This document shows, piece by piece, positions 32,301-61,417 of a stretch of 64,000 nt of DNA. Position numbers and translations under genes: made by a program. This DNA is from Tubulanus polymorphus (taxonomy: Eukaryota > Animalia > Nemertea). The stretch's first letter is position 1. Every line of letters starts with the position of its first letter. The DNA lies in assembly GCF_964204645.1 (NCBI RefSeq), contig NC_134028.1, positions 19,227,653-19,291,652 of the forward strand, read 5' to 3'. The notes under the pieces are model-generated. The model had not been told where the DNA came from, made no database searches, and saw only the letters and a program-made list of their open reading frames with translations.

Positions 32301-33362
32301 TGAAAGTATCAGCAGACCCATCAGATATCTGACCATTAGACTCAATTTCATGAATAGACTGGTGGTTACTGTCCGAAGCCAGTGTGTCGCAACCAGAATT
32401 CTCTTCAAAACAAGGGGGTTGATGTTGACCTTTCTGGGTACCAACGGAAATTCTCAAGAGAGAGAATGGCGTTTCTTCATCACGAGTTAGCCTCAATCTA
32501 CAGGCTATCCATTCGTAAAGGTCTTGACTGGACGGGAAAATCTTTAAGAGACCATTTCCATTTCCCCCAAGAAGTTTTCCAATCGGATGGGTATCAAGTA
32601 TAAAATACTCTTCTGAAAAATTTCCAAGCAGAAAGACATAGCTTTTTGCGGTCAATATGCCAATGAAATTGTCTTCGAGAGCATTTTTCATCAAATTCAA
32701 TCCATCGATGGCACTAAGTTTTATGTTATCAATTACCTCCTCCAAAAACTCTTCTTTTTCTGGGATAAGTTGAAGTTTTTTTAGGATGTCAATAACTTCA
32801 ACCGAATCGTACATTTTAGTGACATCTCTGGAACTATTGATAACATATGGAAGATTAGTTATTGTATCCTCGGCTACTTTTACCATATCGTTCCAAGATC
32901 TATGTTCATGCCTAAACAAATGCGCTAGATAGATGCATAGAAATGCGAACGCATTGGTGCCATCATTTTCACACTGTGAATTAATCTCAAGTCCGATATT
33001 GGCATCACCCTTTTCTACAGCTGAACCCTGACTGACACAGTGGATAGTTTCCGTCGATTGTGAACAAAGTACATTGAGGCTCATCAGTTGTTGGTCAATC
33101 CGATGGACGTGTGAAATGAGTGCACTTCTTGAAAATAGTGCAGATATCTTCCCAGACAGTGACATGCTTTTGATGGAATTTTCTTGAAAAAGAAGGTTTT
33201 TTCTTATTTTTCAACATTTCTTTAATGAATTTTTTTGCGTCTATTTCACCCTTAATTTAAACGAAGTACGGGGCCAGTAAGTCAGGATTTACTACATTGT
33301 AGATTGTCATCCCCAATGCCCAGATATCCGCCAACAGCAAATCATTCAGAGATAGACAAACA
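29394..33362 (-). pseudogene. decayed Mutator-like (MULE) transposase polyprotein: kinase C-lobe, peptidase-like domain, DDE core, SWIM finger, C-terminal Zn finger
   Basis: Overlapping ORFs 31894-33165, 30743-31963, 29581-30561 and 29394-29693 join by frameshifts. MULE motifs: VDPTF (D1), VTDGE (D2), RCFRH (CxxH), NASESMN (E). SWIM finger CKCASYRYDQVCKH. Upstream kinase motifs ADIWALG (IX) and CTHFTRPSD*PT (XI). Confidence 0.8.
30584..30895. repeat. 156-bp tandem duplication inside the MULE transposase
   Basis: GCATTAGCATCTCATTGG...TGATTCCAA at 30584 and 30740, nearly identical. Confidence 0.9.
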
Positions 33363-36300: not shown

Positions 36301-36750
36301 ATTGTCGCGGACGATAAAACCAAAATATTTAATTGTCGCGGGCGATAAAACCAAAATCTTGAATTGTCGCGGGCGACAAAACCAAAATATTGAATTGTCG
36401 CGGGCGACAAAACCAAACTAATTAATTGTTGCGGGCGATAAAACCAAAATAATGAATTGTCGCGGGCGATAAAACCGCGACAAAAAAAAAATTGTCGCGG
36501 GCGATAAAACCAAAATAATGAATTGTCGCGTGCGACAAAACCAAAATAATGAATTGTCGCGGGCGATAAAACCAAAATAATGAATTGTCGCGGGCGATAA
36601 AACCAAAATATTGAATTGTCGTGGGCGACAAAACCAAAATATTGATTTGTCGCGGGTGACAAAACCAAATTAATGAATTGTCGCGGGCGATAAAATCAAA
36701 ATAATGAGTTGTCGCGGGCGATAAAACCGAAATAATGTTTTGTCGCGTTA
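33363..36750. repeat. ~31-bp minisatellite, ~105-110 units, palindromic core TTGTCGCGGGCGACAA
   Basis: Consensus TTGTCGCGGGCGA(C/T)AAAACCAAAATAATGAA. Higher-order repeats of ~258 bp and ~462 bp are visible as duplicated peptides in the ORF track. Confidence 0.96.
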
Positions 36751-36855
36751 TTTTAGTTTTGTAGTTTTGTCATAATGTCGCCCTCATTTGCATATACGTG
36801 TTTTTTTTACGCATGGCCCTTATCAGCCACCATACTAAAGCCTTAAGGTCGCGTA

Positions 36856-41994: not shown

Positions 41995-43330
41995 CGAGAA
42001 TTATTTATTGAAACAATCTAAAATATAAAAACACGACGTTTCGATCTCACACTAGAGATATCGTCAGGTGTGAGATATTAACTAGAAACAGGGGTATATA
42101 TAAACAGGAGAACAGGTTAATTGAGTAAATTGGTGAGTGAGTAACTAATTAGTGTTTGGCAAGGCATTGAGTAATGGAATTGTTGGGAGAAAAGCCATTA
42201 GTATAAATAATTTCGGCTTTATCAAAATTAAAACGATGACCAGTGTTCCAAACATGATTGGCTACACCACTAGCCGGTTTTTGATTTATTATATTCTTTT
42301 TGTGTTCCGAAATTCGAGTTTGTAAATCACGACCAGTTTCTCCAAAGTACATTTTATCACAGCCAAAACAAAGAATTTTGTAAACTCCGCAGTCCAAAGG
42401 TTTAGATTGATTGTTTTTTACCAAAGTCTTGCTAATTTTGTTTTCATACGTGAAAATTATTTGTTTATGCAATAATGGAGAGAATGACGAAATTTTTCCA
42501 AAACAGGTACATACGGAACTACAATGAATTCTGAAATGTGTTTTTTTTATTTTCTGGAGGTTTAGAGTTAAAGAAAGTACGTTTAGCCTTAGAAGTAGCG
42601 ATTTTCAAAATGTGATCAGGGTAAGCCAATTTTTTAAGAGAGTTGGATATGTGGTCAAATTCAGCCGAAAGGAAGGTTTCATCGCAGATCCGTAGTGCAC
42701 GGAGAAAGAGGCCTTGAGCTAGACCAATTCTGATTGATTTAGCAGTAAACGAAAAGAAATGGAGATGTCTCAGCGTTGATCGGTTTACGTTAGACTGAAA
42801 AAAACAAATTAGTGTATTTATTGTGGATTAGAACATCTAAAAATGGAATTTGGTCATTTTGTTCCCATTCAAATGTGAATTTCAAAGATGGATAGTGAGA
42901 GTTGATGAAGTCAATAAAAGAGTTAAGATCAAAATCATCAGAAACTAAGCACAGAGTGTCATCAACACATCTAATCCCACCGTTAGGTTTAGAGCCAGCG
43001 TAATTGGGAAGAATTTCGGATTCAAAATGTTAAAGGAAAAGATTAGCCAAAATGGGGGATAATGGGTTACCCATAGCGAAACCGAAAATTTGTTCATAGA
43101 ATTTGTCTTGGAATTAGAAGTATTGATTGGTTGTACAGAGCTCCAAAAGTTCAAGTTAGCAATCTACAGGAATCGGGAGATCAAGATTGGAGTCCGGGAG
43201 TTTTCTTCTTAATAAATTGAGAGTTGGTTCCAATGGTATATTTGTGAACAAGGATATAGCGTCGAAAGATATTAATTTTTGGCCATCAGGTTTGAGATTT
43301 TTGAGTTTGTCTAAAAGATCCTGTGTCGGC
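41995..43330 (-). mobile_element. 5'-truncated Penelope-like retroelement (RT + GIY-YIG), pseudogenised
   Basis: RT motifs LISFDAISLFTNIP, GFAMGNPLSPILANLF, RCVDD (from YVDD) and IPFLDVLI. GIY-YIG motif GVYKILCFGCDKMYFGETGRDLQTRISEH (42149-42472). The 3' region has a TATA-like run, a hammerhead and AATAAA. Confidence 0.9.
42031..42071 (-). ncRNA. minimal type I hammerhead ribozyme
   Basis: Minus strand reads ACAC-CTGACGA-T-ATCTC-TAGTGT-GAGAT-C-GAAA-CG-TC-GTGT. It has the CUGANGA and GAAA boxes, stem I ACAC/GTGT, stem II ATCTC/GAGAT and a 1-bp stem III with palindromic loop, the form known from Penelope pLTRs. Confidence 0.85.
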
Positions 43331-43836
43331 CTTATGCCGTATCCGTGTTTTAATTTAAACTGCAACGTAACTTTAACGTTAATTTGTTGGATGAAGATGT
43401 ACCCGGAAGTGGGGAAGACAAAGCACAATTGAAAAATAACAATAGCTCGTTCAAATCTATTTCAATCGTTTATCTGATTTGTTTACGAAGCAGGATTCTT
43501 TCAATGTGCGTTCCGTGACAGTTTATTCAATTGGATCAAGCAGTTTTCCCACGTAAGTCGAGCCGTAAAACGTCAAAATACAGCAATAATGTCGCAATCG
43601 TCCGCAACACCGTTAATACCTAAAACCTCAAAAGAAGCGAAACATTTAGGAGCTAACAAGAAGCGAAAGATCAATAATCTCCTGAAACAAATTAAACCAT
43701 TACTGGACTCTAGCGATGGCGTTCCCCACCACGAATTTAAACGTTATGCCAGTAATAGGGGTAATGGGCTTTCAAGCCAAAGGTCGAACGGTCGAGCTCA
43801 TTAAAAAACAAAACATTAAAAGTAATTAAAAACTGA

Positions 43837-46800
43837 GATTTTACTGAGAATAATGAGATTTTAGGCGAAGATTATTTTGATAAAGATAATGATAAGAAAC
43901 AGAAGACAATTAAAAGCATAAAAAATAAATTAAACAATAAAAGACCATATATGGAAGATGTAAGAAATTATATTAATTCATTAGATAATAAAAAAGATAT
44001 AGAGATAACCGAAGCATTTAAAAGTGATATTGGCCCAGCAGCTATCGAGTTTAAATTTCATAAAGGAAAAACATTAGAAGAAAATAAAAAACATTTAGAA
44101 AATATGAAAGAAATAATAAAAATAATTACTGATGTTGAATATCCTAAAATAAGTATATCTTCTAAAGTTAAATTCATCAAATCTGAAGATAAACCAATAT
44201 ATAATATAAATTCTCATTCACAACATATTATATCTAAACAACATATAGATGATAAATTAGATAAATGTTATAATGAAGTAAAAACTAAAATAGAAGAGAA
44301 ATATTTTGAAGGATCTGGTTTAATATTTGATGAAATAATATTTATGACTTTACATGTTTATAACACAAAATATAATAAGTTAACTAAATCGAAACCAATA
44401 GATGAAAATAATTTATCTTATTATAAAGATGATAGTATAAATGGAACAAGTTATATTAAACTACCATTTAAAACTAATGCTGTAATAAATGTACAAAATT
44501 TTGATAACAAATGTTTTCTATGGGCAATAATTAGTTGTTTACACCCAGTTGAAGATTATAAACAACATAGTTTTAGATTAACTCATTATAAACCATTTAA
44601 AAATAATTATAAGATAGATAAGTATCCTGTTATAATTAAAGACATCCCAAAAATAGAAAGAGATAATAATTTAAGAATAAATGTATTTGATTTAATCAAA
44701 TTACCAAATACAAAAGGTAACAACATAAAACATTATACATTAGAACCTTTATATCTATCAAAAGATTATGATTCAAACGATGTTATAGATATACTATATT
44801 ATGAGAATCATTATATGTGGATTAAACAAATCGATTTATTTTTTAAATCAGAAAATGATCACCATAAAATATATCTTTGTAGAAAATGTTTACATAGATT
44901 CAGTAATGAAAGTATATTATTAAATCATAAACAATTATGTGAAAATCATGATTATTGTAAATTAGTTTTACCAAATGAAAAGGATAAAATATTAGAATTC
45001 AAAAAATATGATTACAAAAATAAAGTACCATTTGTTATATATGGAGATTTTGAATCATTAAAAAAAAGAACTAACTGATCAAGATAGAAAAGAAATATAT
45101 TATAAAAGAAAGAAATTAAATTCTAATGAAAATGATTTTTCAGATGAACCACCAAAAACAAATACTATTAAAAAGATTCATCAATCAGCCGCAGCTTTCG
45201 GGTTATACATTAAATCTGATTATCCAGAACTAATTGAAAGTGAATATTATAATTATAGAAATGAAAATGTTATCAATCATTTTTGTGACTTATTAATTGA
45301 ATATGAAATAAGATTTAGTAAATTATTGAATACAAATATAGAAATTATAATGACAGAAAAAGATAAAGAAGAATTTGCGTTTTCAGGTAAATGTTATTAT
45401 TGTGAAAAGATATTTAATTATAAAGATAAAAAAGTAAGAGATCATGACCATTTGAATGGTAAATTTAGAGGTGCAGCGCATAAAAGTAAATTTTGTCCCC
45501 ATTATATTTCACAATTTATCGGGGTATGACGCACATTTATTTATCAAACAGTTATGTCATAAAATAGAAGAAATTAATAATGAAATAGAAATATTAAATT
45601 CAAATAGATCAAAAGATAAAATACCAACTTATAAATTTAGAATGTTAGCTAAAACATCTGAGAATTATATATCATTCCAATTTGGTTGCCTAAGATATAG
45701 ATATAGATTCATATAGATTTTTAAATAGTTCATTAGATAACTTATCAAAATCATTAGTTGATGATGAATTAAAGATCTTAAAAGAATATTACCCAAATAA
45801 TGATGATTTTCAATTAATGAGATATAAAGGAGCAATTCCATATTCTTTCTATAAAAATCATAATGATTTTAACATAACTGAATTATTAAAAGAACAATTC
45901 TATGATGAATTAAAAAATGAATATGTTAAAGATGAAGTCTATAATAGAACATTGAATATTTGGAATCATTTCAAAATAGAAAATCATGGGCAATTAGTAG
46001 ATTTATATCTAAAATCAGATGTATTATTATTAACCGATATATTCGAAAGGTTTAGAGATGTAAACCTAAAATATTTCAATATTGATCCTTGTCATTGTTA
46101 TTCATCACCAGGATTAACATGGGATTGTGGATTAAAATTTACAAATATAAAAATGGATTTGTTAACAAATATAGATCAATTATTATTATTTGAAAAATCT
46201 ATAAGAGGAGGAGTTTCAGGTGTATTAGGTGATAGATATTTCAATGTAAATGATAACCCTGGATATAAGTTATTATATATAGATGCAAATAATTTGTATG
46301 GTTGGGCAATGATGGAACCACAACCTTATGGAGTATTTGAAATAAGTGAAGTTTTACAGAATGAAAATAATGATAAATTTGATTGGAAGAAAAGAATTCT
46401 AGATATTGCAGATGATTCAGATACTGGTTACTTCTTTGTTGTAGACTTAGAATATCCTGAACATATTAAATTTAAATCTAGAAATCTAGCTTACTGTCCC
46501 GAACATTTAACTGTAGATGATAGTTATTTAAGTGAATACCAGAAGAAAATAAAACCGAAAGATCATGTTTTTACAGAAAAATTAATACTTACTCAAAATA
46601 ATAAATACAATTATATTGTTCATTATAGAATGTTAAAATTTTATCTAAAACAAGGAATGAAATTAAAGAAAGTACATAGATATATTGAATTTAATCAATC
46701 GAAGTGGTTAGAAAAATATATAGATTTCAATACTCAACAGAGAACAATATCAAAAACAGATTTCGAAAAAGATTTTTTTAAACTAATGAACAATGCATTC

Positions 46801-47616
46801 TATGGTAATACTTGTGAAAATATTAGAAATAGAAATGATATTGAGTTAGTTAGTAATGGTAAAAGAATTAGACATTTACAAACATATCCTAAGTTCATTG
46901 GTAACAGAATATTTGATGAAAATTTAGCCGCAGTTAAAATTAGAAGAACATCAATGAAATTTAATATACCAATCTATGTTGGCGCTTCAGTTTTAGAATT
47001 ATCAAAATTACTAATGTATGAATTCTATTATAATGTATTACAACCACTTTTTGGAGAAAAACATATAGAAATATTATATTTTGATACCGATTCTTACATA
47101 TTAAAGATAAAAACTGATAACATAACTGATGATTTAAAAACATTAAAGCATCATTTTGATTTTAGTAATTATCCTAAAGATCATGAATTGTTCAGCAATG
47201 ATAATAAAAAAGTTCCAGGGAAGTTTAAGGATGAATTAGGTGGTGAAGAAATGATAGAGTTCATAGGTATTAGATCTAAAATGTATTCATATAAAACTAA
47301 AGAACATGAAGCTAAAAAGTTAAAAGGAATAACCAAAAGTGTAGTAGAAAAGAATATTCATTTCAAAGATTACATCAATTGTATATTCAATGAAGAAGTT
47401 AGAAAACATAAGATGAGATGTTTAAGATCTGATGATCATGAAATGTTTATTGAAGAAATTGAAAAGATAAGTTTAAACCCATTTGATGATAAAAGATATA
47501 TTTTAGATGATGGAATTCATACAGCTGCTTATGGTTGTAATTTAGATGAATACTTAAAATTTAAAAGAGAAGAAACAAAAGAGAACGAGATAATGAAAAG
47601 AATTCTAACGTGTTAA
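43837..47616 (+). pseudogene. protein-primed family B DNA polymerase (pPolB), frameshifted and 5'-truncated
   Basis: ExoI YGDFES, endonuclease-VII-like CYYC..VRDHDHLNGKFRGAAH, ExoII FHNLSGYDAH, ExoIII YLKSDV, PolA YIDANNLYG, PolB KLMNNAFYG, PolC YFDTDS. Frameshifts near 45061, 45485 and 45700. The C-terminal 599-aa ORF (45817-47616) is intact. Confidence 0.95.
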
Positions 47617-47645
47617 TCAAATTTTAATAAAAATATGTTATTAAA

Positions 47646-47958
47646 ATGGAGAGTAAACAAGCTCAAATATAATACCTTTTACACACTTTTATATTTATTG
47701 CAATTTAATCGATCCTACAAAAACATTCGAAGCAACTAAAGAAACAATTTGTAGTTCTAGTATACTAAATATTTTACCGCTAAAAAATGTTAAACAATTT
47801 GGAACTCAAATAAATTATAATTTAACAGAATGTGATTTTAAACCTTGCATTCCTAAATTTAATAATTTTAATTAGAAATAAGAAATCATAATGGATACTT
47901 AATTGATTTAAATAATTTCCCTGTAATTTATGAATTAGTTATAAGATGTAGAGAGTAA
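47646..47958 (+). pseudogene. short minor-capsid (penton)-like ORF with two frameshifts
   Basis: Joined reading: MESKQA/NIIPFTHFYIYCNLID...SILNILP...FGTQINY...FKPC...FNNF/LEIRNHNGYLIDLNNFPVIYELVIRCRE*. The pattern resembles the C-terminal strands of Polinton pentons. Not in the ORF track. Confidence 0.55.
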
Positions 47959-47959
47959 T

Positions 47960-48415
47960 TTTTTTCAACTAATATATGAACAAGTTTTAAAATAATAAAG
48001 GTTATTTATTATTACTGAGGTTTCAATATAAATTTAAAAAAGAAATATAATTTAAAACATTTTCAAATAATATATATTAAATACGTATTAGATACGTATT
48101 AGATACGTATTAGATACGTATTAGATACGTATTAGATACGTATTAGATATGTATTAGATACCTTAATACTTAAAACCCCTTTTTTAAAGTAAATATTATT
48201 CATATAATTTTCAACCAATTTATTTTTATTTTTTTCAACTAATATATGAATAAGTTTTAAAATAATAAAGGTTATTTATTATTACTGAGGTTTCAATATA
48301 AATTTAAAAAAGAAATATAATTTAAGGCATTTTCAAATAATACGTATTAGATATGTATTAGATATGTATTAGATATGTATTAGATACCTTAATACTTAAA
48401 ACCCTTTTTTTATTT
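47960..48415. repeat. duplicated viral non-coding block with an 11-bp VNTR (TAYGTATTAGA)
   Basis: Two direct copies (~47960-48185 with 7 units; ~48230-48412 with 4 units) between convergent genes. Confidence 0.9.
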
Positions 48416-48445
48416 ACTATTATTTTATACAATTTTCAACCTTTA

Positions 48446-49356
48446 TTACTTTCTGAGTGTTAGATAATTACTTTCTGAATCACTTTCATCATCACTCTCC
48501 AATTCATTATCAGACCCTAACAGTTTATTCAAATGCTCTACCGAATCTACATCAATAATTGGTTTATTGATATACTTATTAGTCATCTCATTTATATCAT
48601 CAATAGTTGTTTTATTGTTATACTTATTCATCCAATCAAATTTATCACTATTTTCTACTTTATGTTTCATAGAATCTTTATTATCAATATGCTTATCTGT
48701 AACTATATCACCATGTGGGTGCCGTATGGCACCATTTTCATTATCATCTTTCTTAGTGTTTGACCTTAATATTGTATTTACAATGCTTGATTCTAGTATT
48801 GATTCTATATTTTTAGCAGCAGATAAATCTAATTCATCATTACTAGGTTCCTTAGATAAAAATTCACCTAATAAATCTTTATATAAATCTTTGCCGTCTA
48901 CTTTTTTATTTGAAACAAATTTTGTAACATAATTAAATGGGTGTTCTATAAATTCTTTTAAACCAACACGATCTATAACATTAATAATATGTGAATTTGT
49001 ATTCATATGATTATTCCAATTTGATGGAGCGTTTGAAAATTCACCTTTACAATAGCACAATAATTTCTATTTTCACTAACATCTAATATCATTTTATTAT
49101 TAGATGTAGTAGGTATTATATTATTAGATGTAGTAGGTATTACTGTAGTAGGTATTACATTATTATCAATTACATTACTTAAATTATCAACAACTTCACT
49201 CTTATTATTATCGATTTCTATTAGTTTAGTTTTATAAATTTTGAAAATAGGATCAAATATCAAAGCTATATTACAAGGTATTACATAATATAAACCATCA
49301 TTATTTTCATGTGTATCGATGTATGGAATATGTTTATATACTTTACCTCCTTCCAT
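48446..49356 (-). pseudogene. ~300-aa viral protein with a C2H2-like zinc finger and acidic tail, one frameshift
   Basis: ORFs 49003-49356 and 48446-49060 overlap. Joining them gives NYC/YCKGEFSNAPSNWNNHMNTNSH. Start is in TAAATG. Confidence 0.6.
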
Positions 49357-49388
49357 TTATTATATATATTTTTATTAAAGTTAAAATT

Positions 49389-50636
49389 TTAATACATAAC
49401 ACTATTTAATTGAGAATTTACAATATTTAATTGCGCGTCAGATATAATATAAATGTGCATTTTAAAATTTTTGATTCCTTTATTCTTTGTCATGAATAAT
49501 TGTATTCCATCTTTAGTGTTTTGTAATTTTTTTCCAGAACCATGTAATGAATTATCCTCTGTTGTTCTAAAATCTAACCATAATGCGTATTTATTACCGG
49601 TATAATAATCAATTTGATTAATGTTACAATTTTCAAATGATTTTACTTTTTCATTCATAAAATGTTTTCTAATTTCTGGCCATTGATCAATCATTCTCAT
49701 TCCTTGACAAAATATTTTATTTGCTATTCCTTCGATAGTTATTTCTACTTTTGTTATTTCAGGATTATAATAATTATCAACATTTATTGCGCCATTAGTA
49801 TATGTTGCAATGGTAAAAAATATTAATATGCCTTTAATAGATCTTCTTGGGAAGTTAATATTCTCATTAATAATTTCATCATTTGCATTAATAGTTACGG
49901 TTTTAAATTTATCAATATAATCATATAATAATGAAAATCCTTGATTGTATTTAGTTTGAATTATACTTGAAATATTTTCATCAGTTACTGTGTCATATTC
50001 TAAACATATATTCGATAATTTATAACTCATATCTTTAACAACGCTAGATAATACAATTTCATTTACAGGAGCAAATGTTATCTCAAATATAATATCTTCT
50101 TGAATTGCGTATTTATATAAAGGTGCATTATTATTTATCAATTCAAAGTCTAATGGAATTTTATATTTGCTTCCATATATACTTTTTATCAATTTATCTA
50201 CAGCATTAGTTAATATTGCGCTATTAGCTTCTGATCTTAATTTATTTTGGTTTTCTGATTGGATGCCTTGAAATATCTTATTATTTCTATTTTCTTTTGT
50301 TAACCATAAATCTTTATAATGCATAAATAAATTATAATCATCTAATGAGAAAACTGTTTCTGGACCAATCTTTATTGTTAACTTTTTAATCAAATATCTT
50401 CCAACATTATCAACAACATAATTATTATTATTACCGATTACTTTTATATCAGCCGATAAATAAATACTATTTGGAACATAAAAAGTATTTTGTGTTAATC
50501 TAGGAATTCTAACATATAAAGTTTCATCGGGATTAATATTAGAAGGGTTATGAGTAATTATATGATGTGATCTTTCTGCTTTAATAGCATTAGATATTCT
50601 ATGATTCTTAGAAGGATTGATATAACTCCCACTCAT
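49389..50636 (-). CDS. major capsid protein copy A (predicted double jelly-roll), intact 415 aa
   Basis: Size, beta-strand-rich pattern (LYVRIPRL, IIFEITF, LSNICLEYD, KYALWLDFRT, DGIQLF, MHIYIISDA) and Polinton context. Start is in TAAATG. Confidence 0.8.
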   Translation of the reverse strand: MSGSYINPSKNHRISNAIKAERSHHIITHNPSNINPDETLYVRIPRLTQNTFYVPNSIYLSADIKVIGNNNNYVVDNVGRYLIKKLTIKIGPETVFSLDDYNLFMHYKDLWLTKENRNNKIFQGIQSENQNKLRSEANSAILTNAVDKLIKSIYGSKYKIPLDFELINNNAPLYKYAIQEDIIFEITFAPVNEIVLSSVVKDMSYKLSNICLEYDTVTDENISSIIQTKYNQGFSLLYDYIDKFKTVTINANDEIINENINFPRRSIKGILIFFTIATYTNGAINVDNYYNPEITKVEITIEGIANKIFCQGMRMIDQWPEIRKHFMNEKVKSFENCNINQIDYYTGNKYALWLDFRTTEDNSLHGSGKKLQNTKDGIQLFMTKNKGIKNFKMHIYIISDAQLNIVNSQLNSVMY

Positions 50637-50656
50637 TTATTTAACAAAAAAATTAA

Positions 50657-51757
50657 TTATTTATTTTTTGATATCATGTTTACTAATCCAAAAATAATAG
50701 CACTTACAACAGTTATTAAAAATAAAATAATATGTTCAGCAGCAAAGTTAATAATGTTTCCTGCAGATTTCAATATAAAACCAACAATTGAAGCAATAAC
50801 TCCAGGTAAAGCTGCAGCAGATTTTTTAGATAGTTCCCATAAATATTTTGCTAATTTCTTTAAACCATCTTTAACTTTATCTTGTATAGAATTATTACCT
50901 GGGGGTTTATTGGGAGTGGGAGTAGGAGTAGATTTCAAAGCATTTGATATAGCTAAACCAATTGTTGTAAATAACATAGTTACAGCTGTTAGAATTGAAA
51001 GAATTGTTATACCTTCTAGTTTAAATAATAATTGTATTCTATCTTTTAATGATATTTCGGAATTTGGTTTAATCAACAAATCTTTAAAAATAACTTTTAT
51101 CTATTAATATTATAATCATATGATTTTAATAATAATTTAATTTCTTCTTTTTGTAATTCTATGTTATATTCTAAATCATCAATTTCTTTTTCTAAATATG
51201 CATTTCTTTTTTAAATTCAATTTCTTCAATAACTTTATTATCTCTATCTAATTTTAATTGTTCTATTTCTTTATCTTTATCAGTTAATTCTTTTTCTAGT
51301 TTCTAAATTTTAAAATCTCTTATACTTTTATCATGCGCAATTTTATCAGATGCATTTCTTATACTAATAATTTCTCTTATTGCTTTATCAGAAAATATAT
51401 CTAAATCTTCAAATTCTTGATCTGTTGCATCAATTAATCCATTCGGTAAAAGTTTTTCAATTGAAACTTTATTTGATTTAAGTTTACTAGTTTTGGAAGT
51501 TATATTCTGTTCAGAAGTTGTTTCTGTTTCTAAATTATTATCGATTGTTTCAAATAATTCATTAATTCTTTGTTTAAATACTCTTTCATTTTTAATAATT
51601 TCTTCTTGTGTTACATCTTCTATTTCATTACTATTTCTTATTCTTTTAATTCTAGATAGGTCTAACTTAAGCAAAGTTGATTCTGCTAATATTTTGTTTT
51701 TTTTTTATAAGAGATATCAATATAATAATCATCTTTCAAATCTTTCATTTCTAAAAA
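50657..51757 (-). pseudogene. coiled-coil plus C-terminal multi-TM protein, copy A, 5'-truncated
   Basis: ORFs 51303-51674 and 50657-51079 are collinear and highly similar to 54510-55622. Hydrophobic segments ITILSILTAVTMLFTTIGLAI and IILFLITVVSAIIFGLV. Confidence 0.75.
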
Positions 51758-52368
51758 AATACTAGAATCAAGCATTGTAAATACAATATTAAGGTCAAAC
51801 ACTAAGAAAGATGATAATGAAAATGGTGCCATACGGCACCCACATGGTGATATAGTTACAGATAAGCATATTGATAATAAAGATTCTATGAAACATAAAG
51901 TAGAAAATAGTGATAAATTTGATTGGATGAATAAGTATAACAATAAAACAACTATTGATGATATAAATGAGATGACTAATAAGTATATCAATAAACCAAT
52001 TATTGATGTAGATTCGGTAGAGCATTTGAATAAACTGTTAGGGTCTGATAATGAATTGGAGAGTGATGATGAAAGTGATTCAGAAAGTAATTATCTAACA
52101 CTCAGAAAGTAATAAAGGTTGAAAATTGTATAAAATAATAGTAAATAAAAAAAAGGGTTTTAAGTATTAAGGTATCTAATACATATCTAATACATATCTA
52201 ATACGTATCTAATACGTATCTAATACGTATTTAATACATATCTAATACATATCTAATACGTATTATTTGAAAATGCCTTAAATTATATTTCTTTTTTAAA
52301 TTTATATTGAAACCTCAGTAATAATAAATAACCTTTATTATTTTAAAACTTATTCATATATTAGTTGA
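51758..52368 (+). repeat. inverted copy of 48235-48800
   Basis: Encodes the same peptide (MKHKVENSDK...SNYLTLRK) on the opposite strand, plus the non-coding block with 8 VNTR units instead of 4. Confidence 0.93.
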
Positions 52369-52817
52369 TTCCTCATGATATAAATAAAACTAAATTAAAA
52401 ATATATTTAGAAAAACAAATATTAGAATTTGAAAGTGACTTAAAAGTTAAAAAGAAAAAATATTTAAAATCTAAAATTATATATTATTTGATTATAAGTG
52501 GTTCGGTTACAATTAGTTCTGTAATAACATTTCTAGCAATATTAAGTCCATTAACACCTTTAGCTATATCAATTGGTGTATTAGGATTAAGTTCAAGTGT
52601 TTTAACTGGTATACCAATTGGTGTATTAGGATTAAGTTCAAGTGTTTTAACTGGTATAAGTTCAAAATTAAATATAAAAAGTAATAAAGAATAAATTAAA
52701 ACTAATATAAAAGAAATTAATAAATTAAAGAATACACTAGATTATATAATAAGTTTAAATGGCCATATAACAGTTGAAGAACAAGATAAATTATTAAAAG
52801 AATTAATAAATTATTAA
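52369..52817 (+). pseudogene. two-TM viral membrane protein lacking its start codon
   Basis: Basic N-terminus followed by two hydrophobic helices. In-frame 45-bp duplication (IGVLGLSSSVLTGI twice). Stop at 52692, after which the frame continues IKTNIKEINKLKNTLDYIISLNGHITVEEQDKLLKEL. Confidence 0.6.
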
Positions 52818-52833
52818 TTTTTTAATTAAATAA

Positions 52834-54155
52834 ATGGTAGATAGTTTTCCAAAAGCTTTCCAATATAATAAATCAATTAAATATAATATTCCTGCAATAG
52901 ATTTTAATAAAGATATTACATATAGAAATGAAGTTTTAGATTCATTAATTGATTTATATATTTATGTTACTGAAAGTAATAATTTTCATGTAAAGATGGA
53001 AAATATATTTCATGTGTATACAATTAATTTCAAAAATTTAAATGAGGCAAAACAATGGTTATTAAAATCTAATATGAAGTATTGGCAGAACCAATTAAAT
53101 TTTGCTGTTTATTGCGCAACAACAGGATGTGGAATTAGTTGGAATGATCATTTAAACAAACCAAGTTTACCATTGATGTTATCACTTTTTAGATTTCATA
53201 CATATTTTCAAATAAAATTAATATTAGATGAATTAGAATGTCCTTTACAAGGTTCAAAATATTTTAAAGAATTGAATAATAATATTAATTTTTCTAAGTT
53301 TTATAAAATATGTAATGAATTTAATATTAATTCAAATAAAGATTTTAGAGCAAAAATTGGAACAATGGGTGGATTAGGAATATTGTATACTAAAGAATTT
53401 GGAAAAATAATGACAAATTCAGATATAAGAACACTAAATTGGAATGAATTACCAAAATATTATATAATAATATACAACAACAAAACAATAATGGTTGGGT
53501 TAATTTCATTTTAGAAAATAGTGAAGGTTTTACTAAAGCTGGAATACAAAGAATAAATCAATCTATTAGAACTTATTTGATATGTATTTTAGGCGCGCAA
53601 GTTGAAACAAGATCCCCAATAATTGGAAATGATAACACTTCATTCGATGCGCAGAAACAATTCAAAGTATTATTTGAAGATTCAATTCATAATGATAAAA
53701 ATAGGTCGATTCCAGAAAACATTGTAAGATATCAAAATTATCTAGATAAATCACATATTAGATTAAATTATTGTATAGGCCCTAATTTATTAATTATTTC
53801 TAATGATTTAGTATTAAAGATGGGAAACATAATTGGTTATAATAATCTAATTAAAACTGCAACAATAAATAATTCATTTGGATTAAATGATATAAATAAA
53901 AAGATTATTACTGCTCCAAAATTAATGGAAGGCGAAAAAATAAAAAACATATTCAATCAACAGAAACTAAAACTAAGAATATTAAATTGGATAATGATTC
54001 CAAAATAAAAGATTACGATACTACAGAAAATATTAGAACTGATAATATTCAACATGATATAATTAAACTAAATGATGATAATAAATCCCATGAAAATACT
54101 AAATTAGCTTTAACTTGTATAGGAATTGTTATAGGAGGAATATTGTATTTTAAAT
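52834..54155 (+). pseudogene. uncharacterised viral protein (~430 aa) with C-terminal TM, frameshifted
   Basis: ORFs 52834-53514 and 53577-54008 are linked by ENSEGFTKAGIQRINQSIRTY. Tail reads KLALTCIGIVIGGILYF. Motif WQNQLNFAVYCATTGCG. Start is in TAAATG. Confidence 0.65.
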
Positions 54156-54176
54156 TTTAACTTTTTTATTATGTAA

Positions 54177-55622
54177 ATGGATGTAGAAGGTGGAGAAGAT
54201 ATTGGAATGGATCCTTTAGATGAACCTGGTATAACTGATGAACAACAACCTGATTTTAGTGAAACAAGTTTTAATGATGGTAATGAGCCAGAATATAATA
54301 ATTTAAATATGCCTGATTATATTAAAAATGCAGAATCACAATTAAATCCTGAAAATTTAGACCCATATTTAGTAAAACAAGATTTAGATAATTTAAACAA
54401 AATACCTAAATTAAAACATTTAATTGAAAATTCTAAACTTAACATAAATAATGAAGACGTTGGGCCTTTAGCAGATCAATTAAAATTTTTAGATAATGGT
54501 AAATGTTATTATCGTTTGAAAGATGATTATTATATTAATATCTCTTATAAAAAAGAAGAAAAAATAATAGCAAAATCAACTTTAAAAAAATTAGAACCAG
54601 ATAGAATTAAAATAATAAGTAATAGTAATGAAATAACTGATGTTACACAAAAAGAAAGAGATGATAATATAGACGTATTTAAACAAAGAATTAATGAATT
54701 AATTGAAATAATCAAAAAGAAATCAGAAATAGAAACAACTTCTGAACAGAATATAACTTCCAAAACTAGTAAACTTAAATCAAATAAAGTTCCAATTGAA
54801 AAACTTTTACCGAATGGATTAATTGATGCAACAGATCAAGAATTAGAGGATTTAAATAATATATTTTCTGTTGAAGCAATTAGAGAAATTAAAAGTATAA
54901 GACTTGCATCTGATAAAATTGCGCATGATAAAAGTATAAGAGATTTTCAAATTAGAACTTTAGAAAAAGAATTAACTGATAAACATAAAGAAATAGAACA
55001 ATTAAAGTCTGATTTAGATCATCAAGTAACTGATGAAATAGAATATAGGCAAAAAGAATTACGTTTAGAAAAAGAAATTAATAATTTAAAAGATAATTTA
55101 GAAGTACAGAAAGAAGAAATTGAATTATTATTAAAATCATATGATTATAATATTAATAGATTAAGTTATTTTTAAAGATTTATTGATAAAACCAAATTCT
55201 GAAATATCATTAAAAGATAGAATAAAGTTATCATTTAAATTAGAAGGAATAACAATTCTTTCAATTCTAACAGCTGTAACTATGTTATTTACAACAATTG
55301 GTTTAGCAATATCAAATGCTTTGAAATCGACTCCTACTCCTAATAAACCGGATAAACCCCCGATGATAATTCTATACAAGATAAAGTTAAAGATGGTTTA
55401 AAGAAATTAGCAAAATATTTATGGGAACTATCTAAAAAATCTGCTGCAGCTTTACCAGGAATTATTGCCTCAATTGTTGGTTTTATATTGAAATCTGCTG
55501 GGAATATTCTTAACTTTGCTGCTGAACATATTATTTTATTTTTAATTACAGTTGTAAGTGCTATTATTTTTGGGTTAGTGAATAGATATCAAAAAGATAT
55601 CAAGAAAAAAATAAATAATTAA
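54177..55622 (+). pseudogene. acidic N-terminus, coiled coil and multi-TM protein, copy B, frameshifted
   Basis: ORFs 54177-55175 and 55183-55401 and the downstream frame match copy A's C-terminus. Start is in TAAATG. Confidence 0.75.
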
Positions 55623-55638
55623 TTTTTTTGTTAAATAA

Positions 55639-56886
55639 ATGAGTGGGAGTTATATAAGTCCTTCTTAGATTTCTAGAATATCTAATGCTATTAAAGCAGA
55701 AAGATCACATCATATAATTACTCATAATCCTTCAAATATTAATCCCGATGAAACTTTATATGTTAGAATTCCTAGATTAACACAAAATAATTTTTATGTT
55801 CCAAATAGTATTTATTTATCCGCCGATATAAAAGTAACTGGTCATGATAATAATTATGTTGTTGATAATGTTGGGAGATATTTGATTAAAAAATTAACTA
55901 TAAAGATTGGACCAGAAACAGATTCTCATTAGATGATTATAATTTATTTATGCATTATAAAGATTTATGGTTAACTAAAGAAAATAGAAATAATATATTT
56001 CAGGGTATTCAATCGGAAAACCATAATAAATTAAGATCTGAAGCTAATAATGCAGTAGTAACTGTAGTGCTGTAGATAATTTGATAAAAAAGATTTATGG
56101 AAGCAAATATAAAATTCCATTAGACTTTGAATTGATAAATAATAATGCACCTTTATATAAATATGTAATTCAAGAAGATATTATATTTGAGATAACATTT
56201 ACTCCTGTAAATGAAATTGTATTATCTAGCGTTGTTAAAGATATGGGATATAAATTATCGAATATATGTTTAGAATATGACACAGTAACTAATGAAAATA
56301 TTGCTAGCACAATTCAAACTCAATACAAGCAAGGATTTTCATTATTATATGATTATATTGATAAATTTAAAACTGTAACTATTAATGCAAATAATGAAAT
56401 AATTAATGAGAATATTAACTTCCCAAGAAGATCTGTTAAAGGTATATTAATATTTTTTACTATTGCAACATATTCTAATGGCGCAATAAAGGTTGATAAT
56501 TATTATAATCCTGAAATTATAAAAGTAGAAATAACTATCGAAGGAATAGCAAATAAAATAAATTTTGTCAAGGAATGAGAATGATAGATCAATGGCCAGA
56601 AATTAGAAAACATTTTATGAATGAAAAAGTAAAATCATTTGAAAATTGTAATATTAATCAAATTGATTATTATACCGGTAATAAGTATGCATTATGGTTA
56701 GATTTTAGAACAACAGAGGATAATTCATTACATGGTTCTGGGAAAAAACTACAGAACACTAAAGATGGAATACAATTATTCATGAAAAAGAAAAAAGGAA
56801 GCTTAAATTTTAAAATGCACATTTATATTATATCTGACGCAAAATTAAATATTGTAAATTCACAATTAGATAGTATTCAATATTAG
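55639..56886 (+). pseudogene. major capsid protein copy B (stop at codon 10 plus ~3 frameshifts)
   Basis: Collinear with 49389-50636 along its whole length (MSGSYISPS*...; ORFs 56081-56578 and 56575-56886). Start is in TAAATG. Confidence 0.85.
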
Positions 56887-56920
56887 AAACATAAAGTTAA
56901 AATTAAGGATATATAAGTGG

Positions 56921-58042
56921 GTGGTAGAAAAATCTCCTAATACTAAAGAACAATATTTAAGAAATTTATATTACAACCCTGAGAGTTCGGTTGCTTATTC
57001 TTCTACCAAAAATATATGGCGTCAAGTAAAACAAGATAAATTAGATAAGATAATCCCACAAAATTTAGTTAAATATAAAGATATAAATGAATTTATGTTA
57101 GAACAACCAACATATACAACACATAAAAAAATTGTTAGAAAATATAAAACTCGTAAAACTATGGTAAGTTATGTAGATCAACAGTGGCAAGGAGATTTAA
57201 TTGATATGAAAAATGTTAAGAAAGATAATAATGATTATTGGTGGTTATTGAATATAATTGATATTTTTAGTCGTTATGTATGGAGCTTCCCACTTTATAG
57301 AAAAGATGCTGTACAAACATCAAATATTTTAAGAAAATTTCTTTCGGATGATAAACTAAAACCAGATAAAATACAATTTGATGATGGAAAAGAGTTTGAT
57401 AATTCACTTGTTCATGAACTCTTAGATAATCATAGTATTAAATACTTTTCAACAAAATCGGATAAAAAAGCAGCAGTTGTTGAACGATTTAATAGAACAT
57501 TAAGAACAAGAATGTGGAAATATTTTACAGCAAATAATACTTTTAAATGGATTGATGTTTTACCAAAATTGATAGAAGGATATAATAATTCTTATCATTC
57601 TTCTATTGGAATGAAACCTATTGATGCTAGAAAACCTGAAAATGCTGAAATTGTTTGGAATAATTTATATGGAGCATTTCTTGTAGATGATTTTGGTGAA
57701 CCTAAATTTAAAGTTAGTCAAAATGTTAGAATTTCTAAGTATAAAAAGATATTTGACAAGGGATACGATCGAAATTTTACTAGAGAAATATATAAAATAA
57801 AAAAGGTAATAACAACAAAACCATATGTCTATAAATTAGAAGATTTAGATGGTGAAGAAGTTGATGGCTACTTTTACGAAGAAGAATTAAGTTTAACTAC
57901 TGAAAATCCAGAACAAGAATATAAAATTGAAAAAGTATTAAAAACAAAAACTATTAAAAGAAAAAAATATTCTTTAGTATGGGTTGGATGGCCAGATAAA
58001 TTCAATGAATGGATATTATCAAGTAAAATTAAAAATATATAA
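56921..58042 (+). CDS. retroviral-like (rve) DDE integrase with C-terminal chromodomain; start region mutated
   Basis: WQGDL (D), IIDIFSRY, QFDDGKEF (D), VVERFNRT (E), YNNSYHSSIGMKP. Chromodomain YKIEKVL...SLVWVGWPDKFNEWI. Confidence 0.93.
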   Translation: MVEKSPNTKEQYLRNLYYNPESSVAYSSTKNIWRQVKQDKLDKIIPQNLVKYKDINEFMLEQPTYTTHKKIVRKYKTRKTMVSYVDQQWQGDLIDMKNVKKDNNDYWWLLNIIDIFSRYVWSFPLYRKDAVQTSNILRKFLSDDKLKPDKIQFDDGKEFDNSLVHELLDNHSIKYFSTKSDKKAAVVERFNRTLRTRMWKYFTANNTFKWIDVLPKLIEGYNNSYHSSIGMKPIDARKPENAEIVWNNLYGAFLVDDFGEPKFKVSQNVRISKYKKIFDKGYDRNFTREIYKIKKVITTKPYVYKLEDLDGEEVDGYFYEEELSLTTENPEQEYKIEKVLKTKTIKRKKYSLVWVGWPDKFNEWILSSKIKNI

Positions 58043-58651
58043 AAGAATAAGGAATTATTTATATTTGAGCCTCATAATATGTTAATTTCTGGCGTAACAA
58101 ATTGTGGAAAAACTTATTTTATATTAAATTTATTAGAAACTGTTTAATAAAACTATTTTGATAATATAGTATTATTTTGTCCAACATATGAATTTAATCA
58201 AACTTATGACAGAAATATTACTAGAAATAATAAATTTATTATATTAGATCCTAAAACAGTAAAAGAAAATTTAGATAATTGTATTAAAATAGCAATTGAT
58301 ATTTATAAAGGATCAAATACATTATTCATTATAGATGATTGTGCTAATCTACATGATTCAAAAGTGAGAGAGAGTGAGTTATGTTATTTAGCTTTTTCTG
58401 GTAGACATTTTGGGATAAGAACTTGGGCTTTAAATCAAAAATATAATTCAATTGTTAAAGACTTTAGAGAAAACATTAGATTTCTAGTTTTATTCTACAA
58501 TAAAGATAGAAAATCGATGAAAGATGCACTTGAGGAAAATGATATTATTCCACATGATTTACATAATGAATATATGGATAAGTTGAAAAATATTAAAAGA
58601 TCAAAATTACTATTTAGATTACAACACCCATTTAAATATGAATTTATTTAA
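58043..58651 (+). pseudogene. A32/FtsK-HerA-type DNA packaging ATPase
   Basis: Walker A ISGVTNCGKT, Walker B LFIIDD, SGRHFGI signature. Two adjacent in-frame stops near 58145. The start appears to be ATG mutated to AAG, directly after the integrase stop. Confidence 0.88.
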
Positions 58652-58925
58652 ATTCAACTAGCTTGTTAATCTAGTATATTTTTAGTTACATTCTAGTTGA
58701 ATTCTAGTTATTAGTAGTTGGAACAAAAATCAAATAAAATTCAACAATATTTTAACTAGCTTGTTAATCTAGTATATTTTGAGTTACATTCTAGTTGAAT
58801 TCTAGTTATTAGTAGTTGGAACAAAAATCAACTAGATTTAACAGAAATAAATGAAAACAATATTTCAACTAGCTTGTTAATCTAGTTGAATTCTAGTTAC
58901 ATTCTAGTTGCAACAACACAACTAA
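58650..58925. repeat. three ~100-bp imperfect repeats rich in CTAG/CTAGTT
   Basis: AACTAGCTTGTTAATCTAGT near 58656, 58755 and 58867. TCTAGTTGAATTCTAGTT occurs in each copy. Confidence 0.85.
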
Positions 58926-58941
58926 TTTATTTGTTATATAA

Positions 58942-59547
58942 ATGGGAGGTGAAAAGAAAATAAAATCTAAAAATGGTGATGTTCCAATTGAAAAAACTTT
59001 AGATGATTTAGGAATAACAGAAACCAAATTAACTCCAGATGATGGTGCTTTAAATAATGTTACAACAAATAATAATTATAAATATTATCTTTATTGTAAA
59101 CATCATTTAGAAATATTAATAGCATCTGGAAAATGTAAAAATTTTACCGGTAAAAATTTAACTTATAATGAATTAGATACAATGAAATCAGATGAAATTA
59201 TTAGATTATTTAAGATTTATGAAACCGCGAGAACAGCTAGAATTAATGACGCGATATCAGAAAATGTAGTAAAAGGTTATAGTAAATTATGTAATTATAT
59301 GCTGCCAATTGGAGATGAAAATAGATTATATTCCGATTTAAAAAATGATTATTTAGTTATGACTGAATTAAATAAATGGATTGGATATCTATCATTTCAA
59401 TTAGGCGGATTTATGACATTATTATCAACTGGGGTTATAACATTTTCAAATATTGAAAGTAAAAATATTTCTATAATAAATGAGCGAGGTGGAAGAAGTG
59501 AAGGAATTAACTGTGAAGAAAAAAACGAGAACTCAGAAACAAATTGA
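58942..59547 (+). CDS. uncharacterised viral protein, 201 aa
   Basis: Intact ORF with viral AT-rich codon usage, TAAATG start and a hydrophobic C-terminal segment. Confidence 0.75.
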   Translation: MGGEKKIKSKNGDVPIEKTLDDLGITETKLTPDDGALNNVTTNNNYKYYLYCKHHLEILIASGKCKNFTGKNLTYNELDTMKSDEIIRLFKIYETARTARINDAISENVVKGYSKLCNYMLPIGDENRLYSDLKNDYLVMTELNKWIGYLSFQLGGFMTLLSTGVITFSNIESKNISIINERGGRSEGINCEEKNENSETN

Positions 59548-59835
59548 ATGGTCGCGGCAATTAGGAATTAAATCACAAGAATATAAAAAAGCTGTAAAAA
59601 AAAAATAAGTAATAAAAATGGTAAAAATATTGTTATTTCTACTCCTTCTAATAATAGAATATTTGATAAATGTCTATATTTTACAGTTGGATTTGTAATT
59701 GTATTCATTTTGATTGGGTGTAATTGGTATAAGGAATCAAATAAAATTCATGATATTTATAATTCTGAAAAAACTGCTATCAAAAATGAAAATACTTCTG
59801 AAATTCCAAAATTGATAATAAAAAAAATGGATTAA
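59480..59835 (+). pseudogene. small single-TM viral protein, frameshifted in an A-run
   Basis: TAAATG start, MSEVEEVKELTVKKKTRTQKQIEWSRQLG..., shift near 59600, then CLYFTVGFVIVFILIGCNW...KKMD*. Confidence 0.6.
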
Positions 59836-60869
59836 TATTTTAGAAAAAAAAGCAAAAAAAATAATTGAATATCTCACTACTTTTGTCTATCTATGCGGAG
59901 CAATTAAATTGTCCAGATAAGTCATTTCGGATTCTAGATATTCATTATTTTTATTAATTTATTTTGTTTTTTTAATTTGAAGTTTTTACTTGAATATTGT
60001 ATTACAGTCGTTTCTTATTATTAGTTTTTTCTTAAATTGAAAGATGGCAGCACTGGGTGTGGTGCTAAAATGAATATTTGAATTTGAATTTGTTAATCAA
60101 TTAACATGGTAATTGATTACTAATTTGATTAAAAATTATATCATAATTAAGCTAAAAATCCATAATTCATTTATCAGTTTTCATTCTTATATTCTTTTCA
60201 TTCGGAATAATTTATAATTTCAAATTTCACATATTTTTTTAGCACCAGCAACATTTACTTAGGTGTTTTAGCTAAGTATATAAGGCAATTCAGTCGACGA
60301 CTGGAGTGCCGCCGGGCTTGGCTTGCAGGGGCATTTCGAAAATGCACCTTTGTCCACCCTCCGTGGTTCTCCTTCAGTTTCGACTTTCGATCCTCCTTTC
60401 GGGGGTAAGGGGTTGATAGGAAATGCATTAGGCGCCTTTAATATAATCTGTTTCCTGTCAACCATTGAAGGAGAATTGGTGAGGTGTGGGTCACAGGGGT
60501 GTAAGTAGAAATGCTTGGGGATAGGTATCTCGTGGCGCCTCTCAATAACGGGATGCTTATCCCCTAAAAACTCTGTGAGTCAAGTCGGGTGGTTTTGCTA
60601 AAACTTACCGTAAAAACATTGAAATATTCCTTTTAATCACGAGAGAGAATGTATCCTCCTGCCCTGTGTGTGTTGTATGTACTGCGTGCTTATTATATAA
60701 CTGCTATAACAACAACGTTGAATTGCAACACCTGTTTGATCGATCAATATTCAAATGAAGCACTCTCTTATAATAACATGTAACAGATGTTTGACTGTAT
60801 GATTGTAGTTGTTTGTAAAACGACTAAGGTCATTTTGGATTCTAGATATTCATTATTTTTATTTTTTAT

Positions 60870-61196
60870 TTAATCAACAATTTCTAAATCATGATGACCA
60901 TCTTCATTTTTCCCATGATAGATTACTTTAAATCCTTCTAAATCTTTTAATTCCTCTGTACTCAATGAAACCCATTTATCGGGTAAAAATACTCTAAATT
61001 CTCGCGATGTACTAACATTACAGTAGCTTAAATTCGCTGATACTTTCTCTCCATATTTAGTTTTTATCTTTTCTAATTTCAATATTTTATGTTCAATTTC
61101 TTTTGTAACATCAACTAACTTTTTTATTTCAAATTGTTTTTTTGCTGGTTTAATTCTGTTATTTACTATTGCTAAGAATGCTTTTCTATCTCCCAT
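60870..61196 (-). CDS. 108-aa viral protein, possible OB-fold ssDNA-binding protein
   Basis: Intact ORF with TAAATG start. The TKYG...RVFLP pattern recalls small Polinton proteins; the fold is inference. Confidence 0.6.
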   Translation of the reverse strand: MGDRKAFLAIVNNRIKPAKKQFEIKKLVDVTKEIEHKILKLEKIKTKYGEKVSANLSYCNVSTSREFRVFLPDKWVSLSTEELKDLEGFKVIYHGKNEDGHHDLEIVD

Positions 61197-61417
61197 TTAT
61201 TAGGAAAAAAAATTACTTGTGGTGATGAGTGGTGTCTCGACCTCTCGACCTCTGGTATGAAAACGCCATCTTCTAATTACTATAGATGACAGAATTTTGA
61301 GAAATATAGATCACTGCACTATACCTGTATTGTATTGTGATAATTTTTTTGCAGCCTAGAAGAATACAACTTTTGATTAACGGACTATTATTCAAAATTT
61401 ACTTTCTTATTTTCAGA

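Follow-up and report, generated by a model that had tools for sequence, protein, structure and literature searches.

Polintons (Mavericks, adintoviruses; Polintoviricetes) occur in many copies in animal genomes and share a set of core genes, i.e., a protein-primed family B DNA polymerase (pPolB), an rve integrase, an A32-type packaging ATPase and a double-jelly-roll capsid protein. It has long been an open question whether the Polintons of animals live autonomously in the nucleus or parasitize larger viruses, and their transcription has hardly been studied; the available part of one Polinton/adintovirus paper (PMC8502044) contains no promoter analysis. In protists the matter is clearer. Mavirus and the endogenous mavirus-like elements (EMALEs) of Cafeteria are small viruses with double-stranded DNA genomes that integrate by means of an rve integrase and carry one promoter motif on most genes, which the accessible text on EMALEs reads as a sign of helper dependence, with promoter sharing as the accepted basis of mavirus and EMALE activation (PMC8547959); transcription by the helper is treated as demonstrated in mavirus, and a case for it is made in EMALEs (PMC8547959; 10.1101/2025.10.09.676808). 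In animals, Polinton-like viruses have been found in the occlusion bodies of insect entomopoxviruses and are proposed to be Polinton-type hyperparasites of poxviruses; no rve integrase was detected in them, and the main text of that work, as far as available, has no promoter analysis (Barth et al., PMC11296320). Poxviruses in turn have a late promoter, which in vaccinia, according to the available sections of the cited papers, consists of a TAAAT followed by G that overlaps the start codon and of a T that is conserved at the 10th base upstream (PMC11980589), and transcription initiates within TAAAT, where slippage makes poly(A) leaders (PMC4542343, PMC6211774). Here we describe a signal of this type at the gene starts of a Polinton from the marine nemertean Tubulanus polymorphus, located at ca. 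43.8–61.2 kb of a window of 64,000 nucleotides (the whole stretch of DNA analysed; contig NC_134028.1, positions 19,227,653–19,291,652), and of its relatives.

The promoter signature in this animal Polinton lineage is real and clade-wide. Polintons elsewhere differ from the clade of the window element in that a genome-wide TAAATG signal is found in this one capsid clade and is missing from the 64 more distant loci that we compared. Mavirus and the EMALEs have a protist host, a Maveriviricetes capsid, a TCTA motif and a known helper, whereas the window clade has an animal host and a Polinton capsid, and no helper of it is known. What links the window clade to poxviruses, as opposed to the entomopoxvirus-associated viruses, is the promoter signature; the host is a marine worm and no insect, and no helper was found. 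We found no published report of TAAATG-type promoters in animal Polintons, of Mavericks with poxvirus late promoters or of nemertean Polintons, in a search that left most of the subscription literature outside, and the available parts of three further papers (PMC8363768, 10.1101/2024.03.23.586382, 10.64898/2026.10.13.758929) hold no such promoter analysis, so that the signature is apparently unreported so far. Being clade-wide and fixed in position, it separates two regulatory classes of animal Polintons, and the sequence is enough to score them.

TAAATG at the gene starts of the window element

The element is a decayed and rearranged Polinton in which all four core genes were found, and it stands out as an AT-rich stretch (GC 21–24%, vs. 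33–40% in the flanks). An earlier note on this DNA had listed eight ATGs lying in TAAATG, at 49356(-), 50636(-), 52834, 54177, 55639, 58942, 59480 and 61196(-), and all eight do, seven of them as ATAAATG. As the note also held, they represent seven distinct genes, the starts at 50636 and 55639 belonging to diverged copies of the capsid gene. The T-run remarked upstream of most of them can be sharpened to a T at position -12 in all eight, giving promoter-like sites of the form T(-12)...TAAATG on the plus strand at 52822–52836, 54165–54179, 55627–55641, 58930–58944 and 59468–59482 (the last inside the upstream coding sequence), and on the minus strand at 49354–49368, 50634–50648 and 61194–61208 (the last ca. 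35 nt from the right junction). The site at 52822–52836 was invariant (<2%) in ca. 590 genomic reads, with variation at spacer positions, which is consistent with conservation of the motif among genomic copies but weak, as variation was limited to 28 of 141 positions.

Over both strands of 43.5–61.3 kb, the eight starts included, 49 of 668 ATGs (7.3%) lie in TAAATG, and in the host flank (1–30 kb) 40 of 1280. At the 7.3% background, seven out of seven genes correspond to p ~1e-8, and if three degraded starts (penton-like gene, integrase and ATPase) count against the motif, the probability of 7 or more out of 10 is ~1e-6 (both hand calculations). The outcome that the earlier note had named as damaging, TAAATG being no commoner at starts than elsewhere, is therefore not what is seen (8/8 vs. 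7.3%). The control that it proposed, internal ATGs, had to be replaced because those in frame never follow TAA; all other ATGs and the frequency of the upstream trimer were used. Its view of the integrase and ATPase starts as damaged is borne out as regards the damage; these two were not counted with the motif starts, since there is no in-frame ATG at the start of the orthologue. In the penton-like gene the upstream region aligns at 85% with its counterpart in L009, a related 11.5-kb locus, yet the site is degraded.

The window starts are real and not picked by the motif, because orthologues in three related loci (L001, L004 and L009) begin at matching places; for example, the product starting at 59480 aligns with that at L009:9951 from residue 1 (58%, E 8e-12). 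Two candidates for starts lacking the motif were rejected, 43951 as internal to a polymerase gene without its 5' end and 49006 as the second piece of the gene beginning at 49356.

Distribution and anatomy of the signal

A capsid search returned 925 homologues, and we analysed 80 metagenome loci (the best 80 of 117), scoring as starts the first ATGs of non-overlapping open reading frames (ORFs) of at least 100 aa. In the 16 near loci, with capsid identity of at least 49%, TAAATG was found at 52 of 60 ORF starts, against 7% expected from the upstream trimer and 4.2% at other ATGs, while in the other 64, far, loci it was found at 5 of 299. Base composition does not account for the contrast: four near loci at GC 33–44% have the motif at 10/12 starts and eight far loci under 42% GC at 1/21. 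The same holds gene by gene, both for the capsid (13/16 near vs. 2/59 far) and for the ATPase (5/6 vs. 0/40). A quick maximum-likelihood tree of 48 capsids groups the motif rows in a single clade (SH-aLRT 97), whose 15 members are 14 motif rows and L011, with a start reading TAAATGA-ATG; of the 80 loci, 33 whose capsid matches were short are not in this tree, and four of its AT-rich rows are odd in composition. The single flagged row outside this clade, L043, is an internal ATG. Conservation in related copies, on which the earlier note had made its reading depend, thus extends over a capsid clade that spans GC 20–44%.

Beyond the capsid clade, a capsid-less IMG/VR contig of 38% GC (L083), linked to the window element by its integrase (43–48%) and its polymerase, has the motif at 6/6 starts, those of polB and integrase among them. 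In other elements TAAATG stands at 0/13 starts (the virophage L081), 1/10 (L219) and 1/9 (L221), and capsid scans of IMG/VR and GTDB gave no relatives. The signal is thus shown to be confined to a single clade of capsids and a few elements linked to it. In several exceptions (L006, L008, L011 and L082) TAAAT is kept slightly 5' of the ATG, as in the polB start of L082 (TAAATAG-ATG), and this is to be expected if the conserved unit is TAAAT and not the reading frame.

For the anatomy of the signal we used the 47 motif starts (of 53 ORFs) in 13 dereplicated loci, after dropping the near-copies L002, L008 and L011. Upstream of the motif there is A in 76% at -18, T in 76% at -13 and T in 87% at -12, followed by a spacer (-11 to -7) that tolerates C and G, A in 80% at -4 and, behind the start codon, G in 68% at +4 (32/47). 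The T at -12 is present at 41 of the 47 starts, whereas of the TAAATG of these loci that are not starts 26 of 82 have it (p 5e-10). The codon preceding the ATG is TAA in all 47 cases, never TAG or TGA, although the real stops of these genes divide 39:5:9, and in L083 it is TAA in 6:0:0 although its own stops are TAA in 1/6. The TAA of the motif is the stop of the upstream gene in only 1 of 53 cases (L083 included), at seven of the 53 motif starts there is overlap with the ORF upstream, and the motif is also found on divergently oriented genes (L001, L083). From the fixed spacing to the upstream element, the independence of stop usage and the divergent genes we infer a promoter acting at the DNA level rather than a translation signal. 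Within genes TAAATG is not avoided (35 observed, 36.0 expected), and splice-site counts did not separate the groups. A trans-splice acceptor was rejected, there being no AG after the T run, and the TCTA motif of CroV and mavirus was not enriched (4/47 vs. 2/47 in a control stretch).

Several observations concern individual relatives. L009 carries a deoxynucleoside kinase within the Polinton (L009:10340–10981), with the motif at its start and closest relatives at 60–67%. The integrase of L083 (2740–4251) has an N-terminal extension whose His and Cys motifs look protease-like; compared with a virophage protease the stretch gave a pairwise E of 0.06, which is not significant. A long-branch capsid lineage (L053:546–5129 and L054:1157; branch 1.54) has starts in TATATA-ATG or near variants and not in TAAATG. 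Such starts recall the TATA initiator of asfarvirus late genes, and the lineage may bear the mark of a second helper type. Near-clade capsid pieces (54% identity) were also found on contigs of 0.5–1.6 kb in assemblies labelled Bartonella sp. (cluster P0046), where they were probably carried over from a eukaryote. Finally, the closest capsids (P0001–P0057) come from contigs of up to ca. 17 kb and many of the relatives at 37–40% (P0058–P0120) from megabase contigs, a contrast that may reflect free genomes, collapsed repeats or mere database make-up.

Transcription of the clade

The explanation that we consider probable, with considerable room for doubt, is that these sites are late promoters on which the cytoplasmic RNA polymerase of a large DNA virus acts during co-infection, the clade being an integrating hyperparasite. 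The genes would then be silent in the host nucleus and transcribed by the late machinery of a co-infecting nucleocytovirus; the AAA within TAAAT would be the place of initiation, and the A at -3, missing from the DNA, would come from a 5' poly(A) leader added by slippage. Infection by the helper would, as in mavirus, activate every gene, also those of the polymerase and the integrase, and new copies would integrate by way of the rve integrase. Neither in the window nor in L009 was an ORF recognised as an RNA polymerase gene. Helper dependence of the clade is likely. If there is a helper, a little over half of our expectation falls on a poxvirus relative and a little under half on another nucleocytovirus, so that the narrower claim of a poxvirus-related helper, which the register of the upstream T favours modestly, is a tentative one. 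It is likewise no more than a possibility that the clade represents the provirophages of an undescribed poxvirus-related lineage of marine invertebrates, the starts being a fossil record of its late promoter and the copies in the worm germline a reservoir, triggered by the helper and possibly of protective value, comparable to that of mavirus in Cafeteria. The signature would predict a cytoplasmic large DNA virus in Nemertea, where our literature search found none described.

The likeness to the vaccinia (chordopoxvirus) late promoter lies in the TAAAT fused to the start codon, the T some 10 nt upstream and the T-rich stretch around it. The T peak of the clade (-12/-13) corresponds to the 9th–10th base upstream of TAAAT, and in three poxvirus loci (69 ORFs, 22 with the motif) a local T peak is also found at -12 (14 of the 22 motif starts). 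Unlike in poxviruses, the motif of the clade is present on ca. 87–89% of the genes and not on one temporal class; its upstream element (A at -18, T at -12) is sharper than that of the vaccinia late promoter, and it belongs to an element without its own polymerase for transcription. A pattern built from the clade retrieved at least 120 loci from IMG/VR, for 80 of which flanks were taken, with TAAATG at 63 of 644 ORFs and with a Sputnik-type virophage and an orthopoxvirus in the first two places; such a signal is thus characteristic of genes that viruses transcribe, though not peculiar to poxviruses. The uncultured virophage (L142/L205–L208) resembles the clade in having TAAATG at 8/13 starts (scored in L207) with an upstream T run, and is unlike it in its Sputnik-family capsid and in a T peak at -15/-16 instead of -12. 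The earlier note had assigned transcription to the polymerase of a pox-like virus. The part of this claim that concerns a large-virus polymerase is strengthened by conservation over the clade, the two-part layout and the lack of the signal in sister Polintons; the part that concerns a pox-like helper is not, and the entomopoxvirus precedent to which the note appealed does not carry over directly to a marine nemertean.

Among the other explanations, the one that deserves most attention is a compact core promoter, or combined transcription–translation element, read by the host RNA polymerase II with a very short 5' untranslated region and perhaps an element-encoded activator, in which case the clade would be autonomous and nuclear and the pox likeness a convergence on AT-rich DNA. 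The many copies in the germline of an animal, the fact that no helper was found, the existence of clade-specific proteins without assigned function and an AATAAA test without significant cytoplasmic relaxation all agree with it. On the other hand, no such signal is present in sister Polintons, whose core genes are the same, a TATA-like role would on general grounds place the start site beyond the ATG, the fixed T(-12) agrees with the vaccinia register, and the same type of start is found in a virophage, i.e., in a helper-transcribed element. We give the host-read promoter a minor though real chance. Chance occurrence in DNA of 78% AT combined with a choice of starts guided by the motif might seem plausible given the 49 occurrences of TAAATG in the element; it is refuted by the counts in near and far loci, in which GC-richer near loci keep the motif and AT-rich far loci lack it, by starts that are fixed by homology and by its scarcity in L081, L219 and L221, so that we attach practically no weight to it.

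A signal acting in translation, with the in-frame stop before each ATG serving termination–reinitiation or cutting off upstream reading on read-through RNAs, would fit the frame of the TAA and the motif starts that overlap an upstream ORF. It is hard to reconcile with the total absence of TAG and TGA (47:0:0 vs. 39:5:9, ~5e-7 by hand calculation), with the rarity of a TAA that is the upstream stop, with the divergently oriented genes and the fixed upstream T, or with the exceptions that keep TAAAT out of frame, and we regard it as improbable. We think equally little of an unused relic of a helper-dependent ancestor, the present copies spreading as nuclear transposons or by duplication. The broken and rearranged state of the window copy speaks for it, and for this one copy the relic reading may be correct; the signal has nevertheless been kept across capsids that are 49–77% identical, GC contents of 20–44% and accessory genes such as the L009 kinase, and such retention needs ongoing selection.

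Transcription by a large DNA virus has its own difficulties, which should be set against it. No helper virus sequence was found, the host assembly not having been searched, and neither transcript, start site nor poly(A) leader was seen; one run guessed to be RNA gave no real alignment on the element and is no evidence either way. The 40–100 germline copies estimated below need repeated expression in germ cells, which would be easier with host transcription, and the window copy is itself a broken relic. If transcripts were made in the cytoplasm, avoidance of AATAAA might be relaxed, and the observed/expected ratios (1.09 in near loci, 0.82 in far AT-rich loci, 0.87 in far GC-rich loci and 0.87 in the window) go in the expected direction, none of them significantly. 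As for the resemblance to poxviruses, the correlation between the T profile as a whole and that of the poxvirus control is only r 0.27, the control comprises ca. 8 orthologous genes from three related genomes, and TAAATG is not specific to poxviruses, being found in the virophage mentioned and at 10/30 starts in two giant-virus contigs. The T at -12 is weaker in L083 (4/6), the boundary between near and far loci was set after the starts had been seen, even if it agrees with capsid identity of at least 49% and with the tree, and no named viral donor came out of the search with the deoxynucleoside kinase of L009.

Genes and surroundings of the window element

The left part of the element is occupied by pieces of the protein-primed family B DNA polymerase gene (43837–47616, plus strand), whose 5' end, and with it the true start, is missing from this copy; they match residues 194–1207 of the L020 polymerase (Pfam DNA_pol_B_2; tblastn E 3e-162) and also that of L083. 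Next to it is a gene remnant (47620–47952, plus; tblastn to L009:565–1329) with the degraded promoter site before the ATG at 47646. From its position it is a candidate penton gene; the candidate gave no Pfam or PHROG match. The following gene is specific to the clade (48446–49356, minus; two ORF pieces starting at 49356, tblastn to L001:2461 and L004:2287), had just two matches among 1.84 billion representatives and, as a tracer of the helper, gave no named relatives.

An inverted segment of 3.3 kb contains an open gene for the major capsid protein (49389–50636, minus; 415 aa) and an inverted partial copy of a conserved gene of 485 aa (50666–51706, minus). It is only 86–95% like its partner at 54.5–56.9 kb, indicating that two diverged copies are mixed in the element. 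The AlphaFold model of the 415-aa capsid protein (pLDDT 87) is a predicted double jelly roll for which Foldseek found the capsids of PBCV-1, iridovirus, mavirus and Sputnik (E 1e-16 to 9e-11). In Pfam the window capsid had no match, whereas those of L081 and L142 match Sputnik_MCP_1st.

The plus strand continues with a broken conserved Polinton gene (52834–54157; 442 aa in L009, 77–81% to L009:2996), the broken 485-aa gene itself (54177–55595; length as in L009) and the second, broken copy of the capsid gene (55639–56886). The rve integrase (56914–58042; Pfam rve E 4e-10, 60–77% to L001, L004 and L009) has a damaged start, as has the A32-type packaging ATPase (58040–58650), which is interrupted and 80% identical to L009:8470, itself a match to Pox_A32 (E 5e-11). 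They are followed by an open conserved Polinton gene of 201 aa (58942–59547; 73% to L009:9410), the 5' piece of a broken 130-aa clade gene (59480–59608; the relative of L009:9951 mentioned above) and, on the minus strand, an open clade gene of 108 aa (60870–61196; 72% to L009:125). No protease was recognised in the window or the near loci, where no dedicated profile search was made.

Integration in the host genome is indicated by host flanks and by the high depth of the element in the DNA run of a second study, mostly 250–700 compared with 5–7 at single-copy flank positions, which corresponds to roughly 40–100 copies or fragments in the genome. This copy is truncated at both ends, and the longest inverted repeats hold no terminal arms. 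Inside it, a 32-nt direct repeat with one mismatch (59921–59952 and 60829–60860) borders a GC-richer stretch of 0.9 kb. The stretches 48070–48412, 52172–52270 and 58634–58910 are made up of 11-bp tandem arrays, which border the inverted segment, and of CTAG-rich repeats of ca. 98 bp, which are found between the ATPase and the next gene. Outside the element, an exon of host VWA3A (8806–9057, plus) is 100% identical to a T. polymorphus protein, the next full-length match reaching at most 74%. Adjoining the truncated polymerase gene there is a retroelement remnant with a GIY-YIG-like ORF piece (42100–43750), presumably Penelope-like. The host flank also contains a large tandem array with a period of 31 bp (33200–36800) and, at 29581–33210, a transposon-like element with three long open frames (337–438 aa) on the minus strand.

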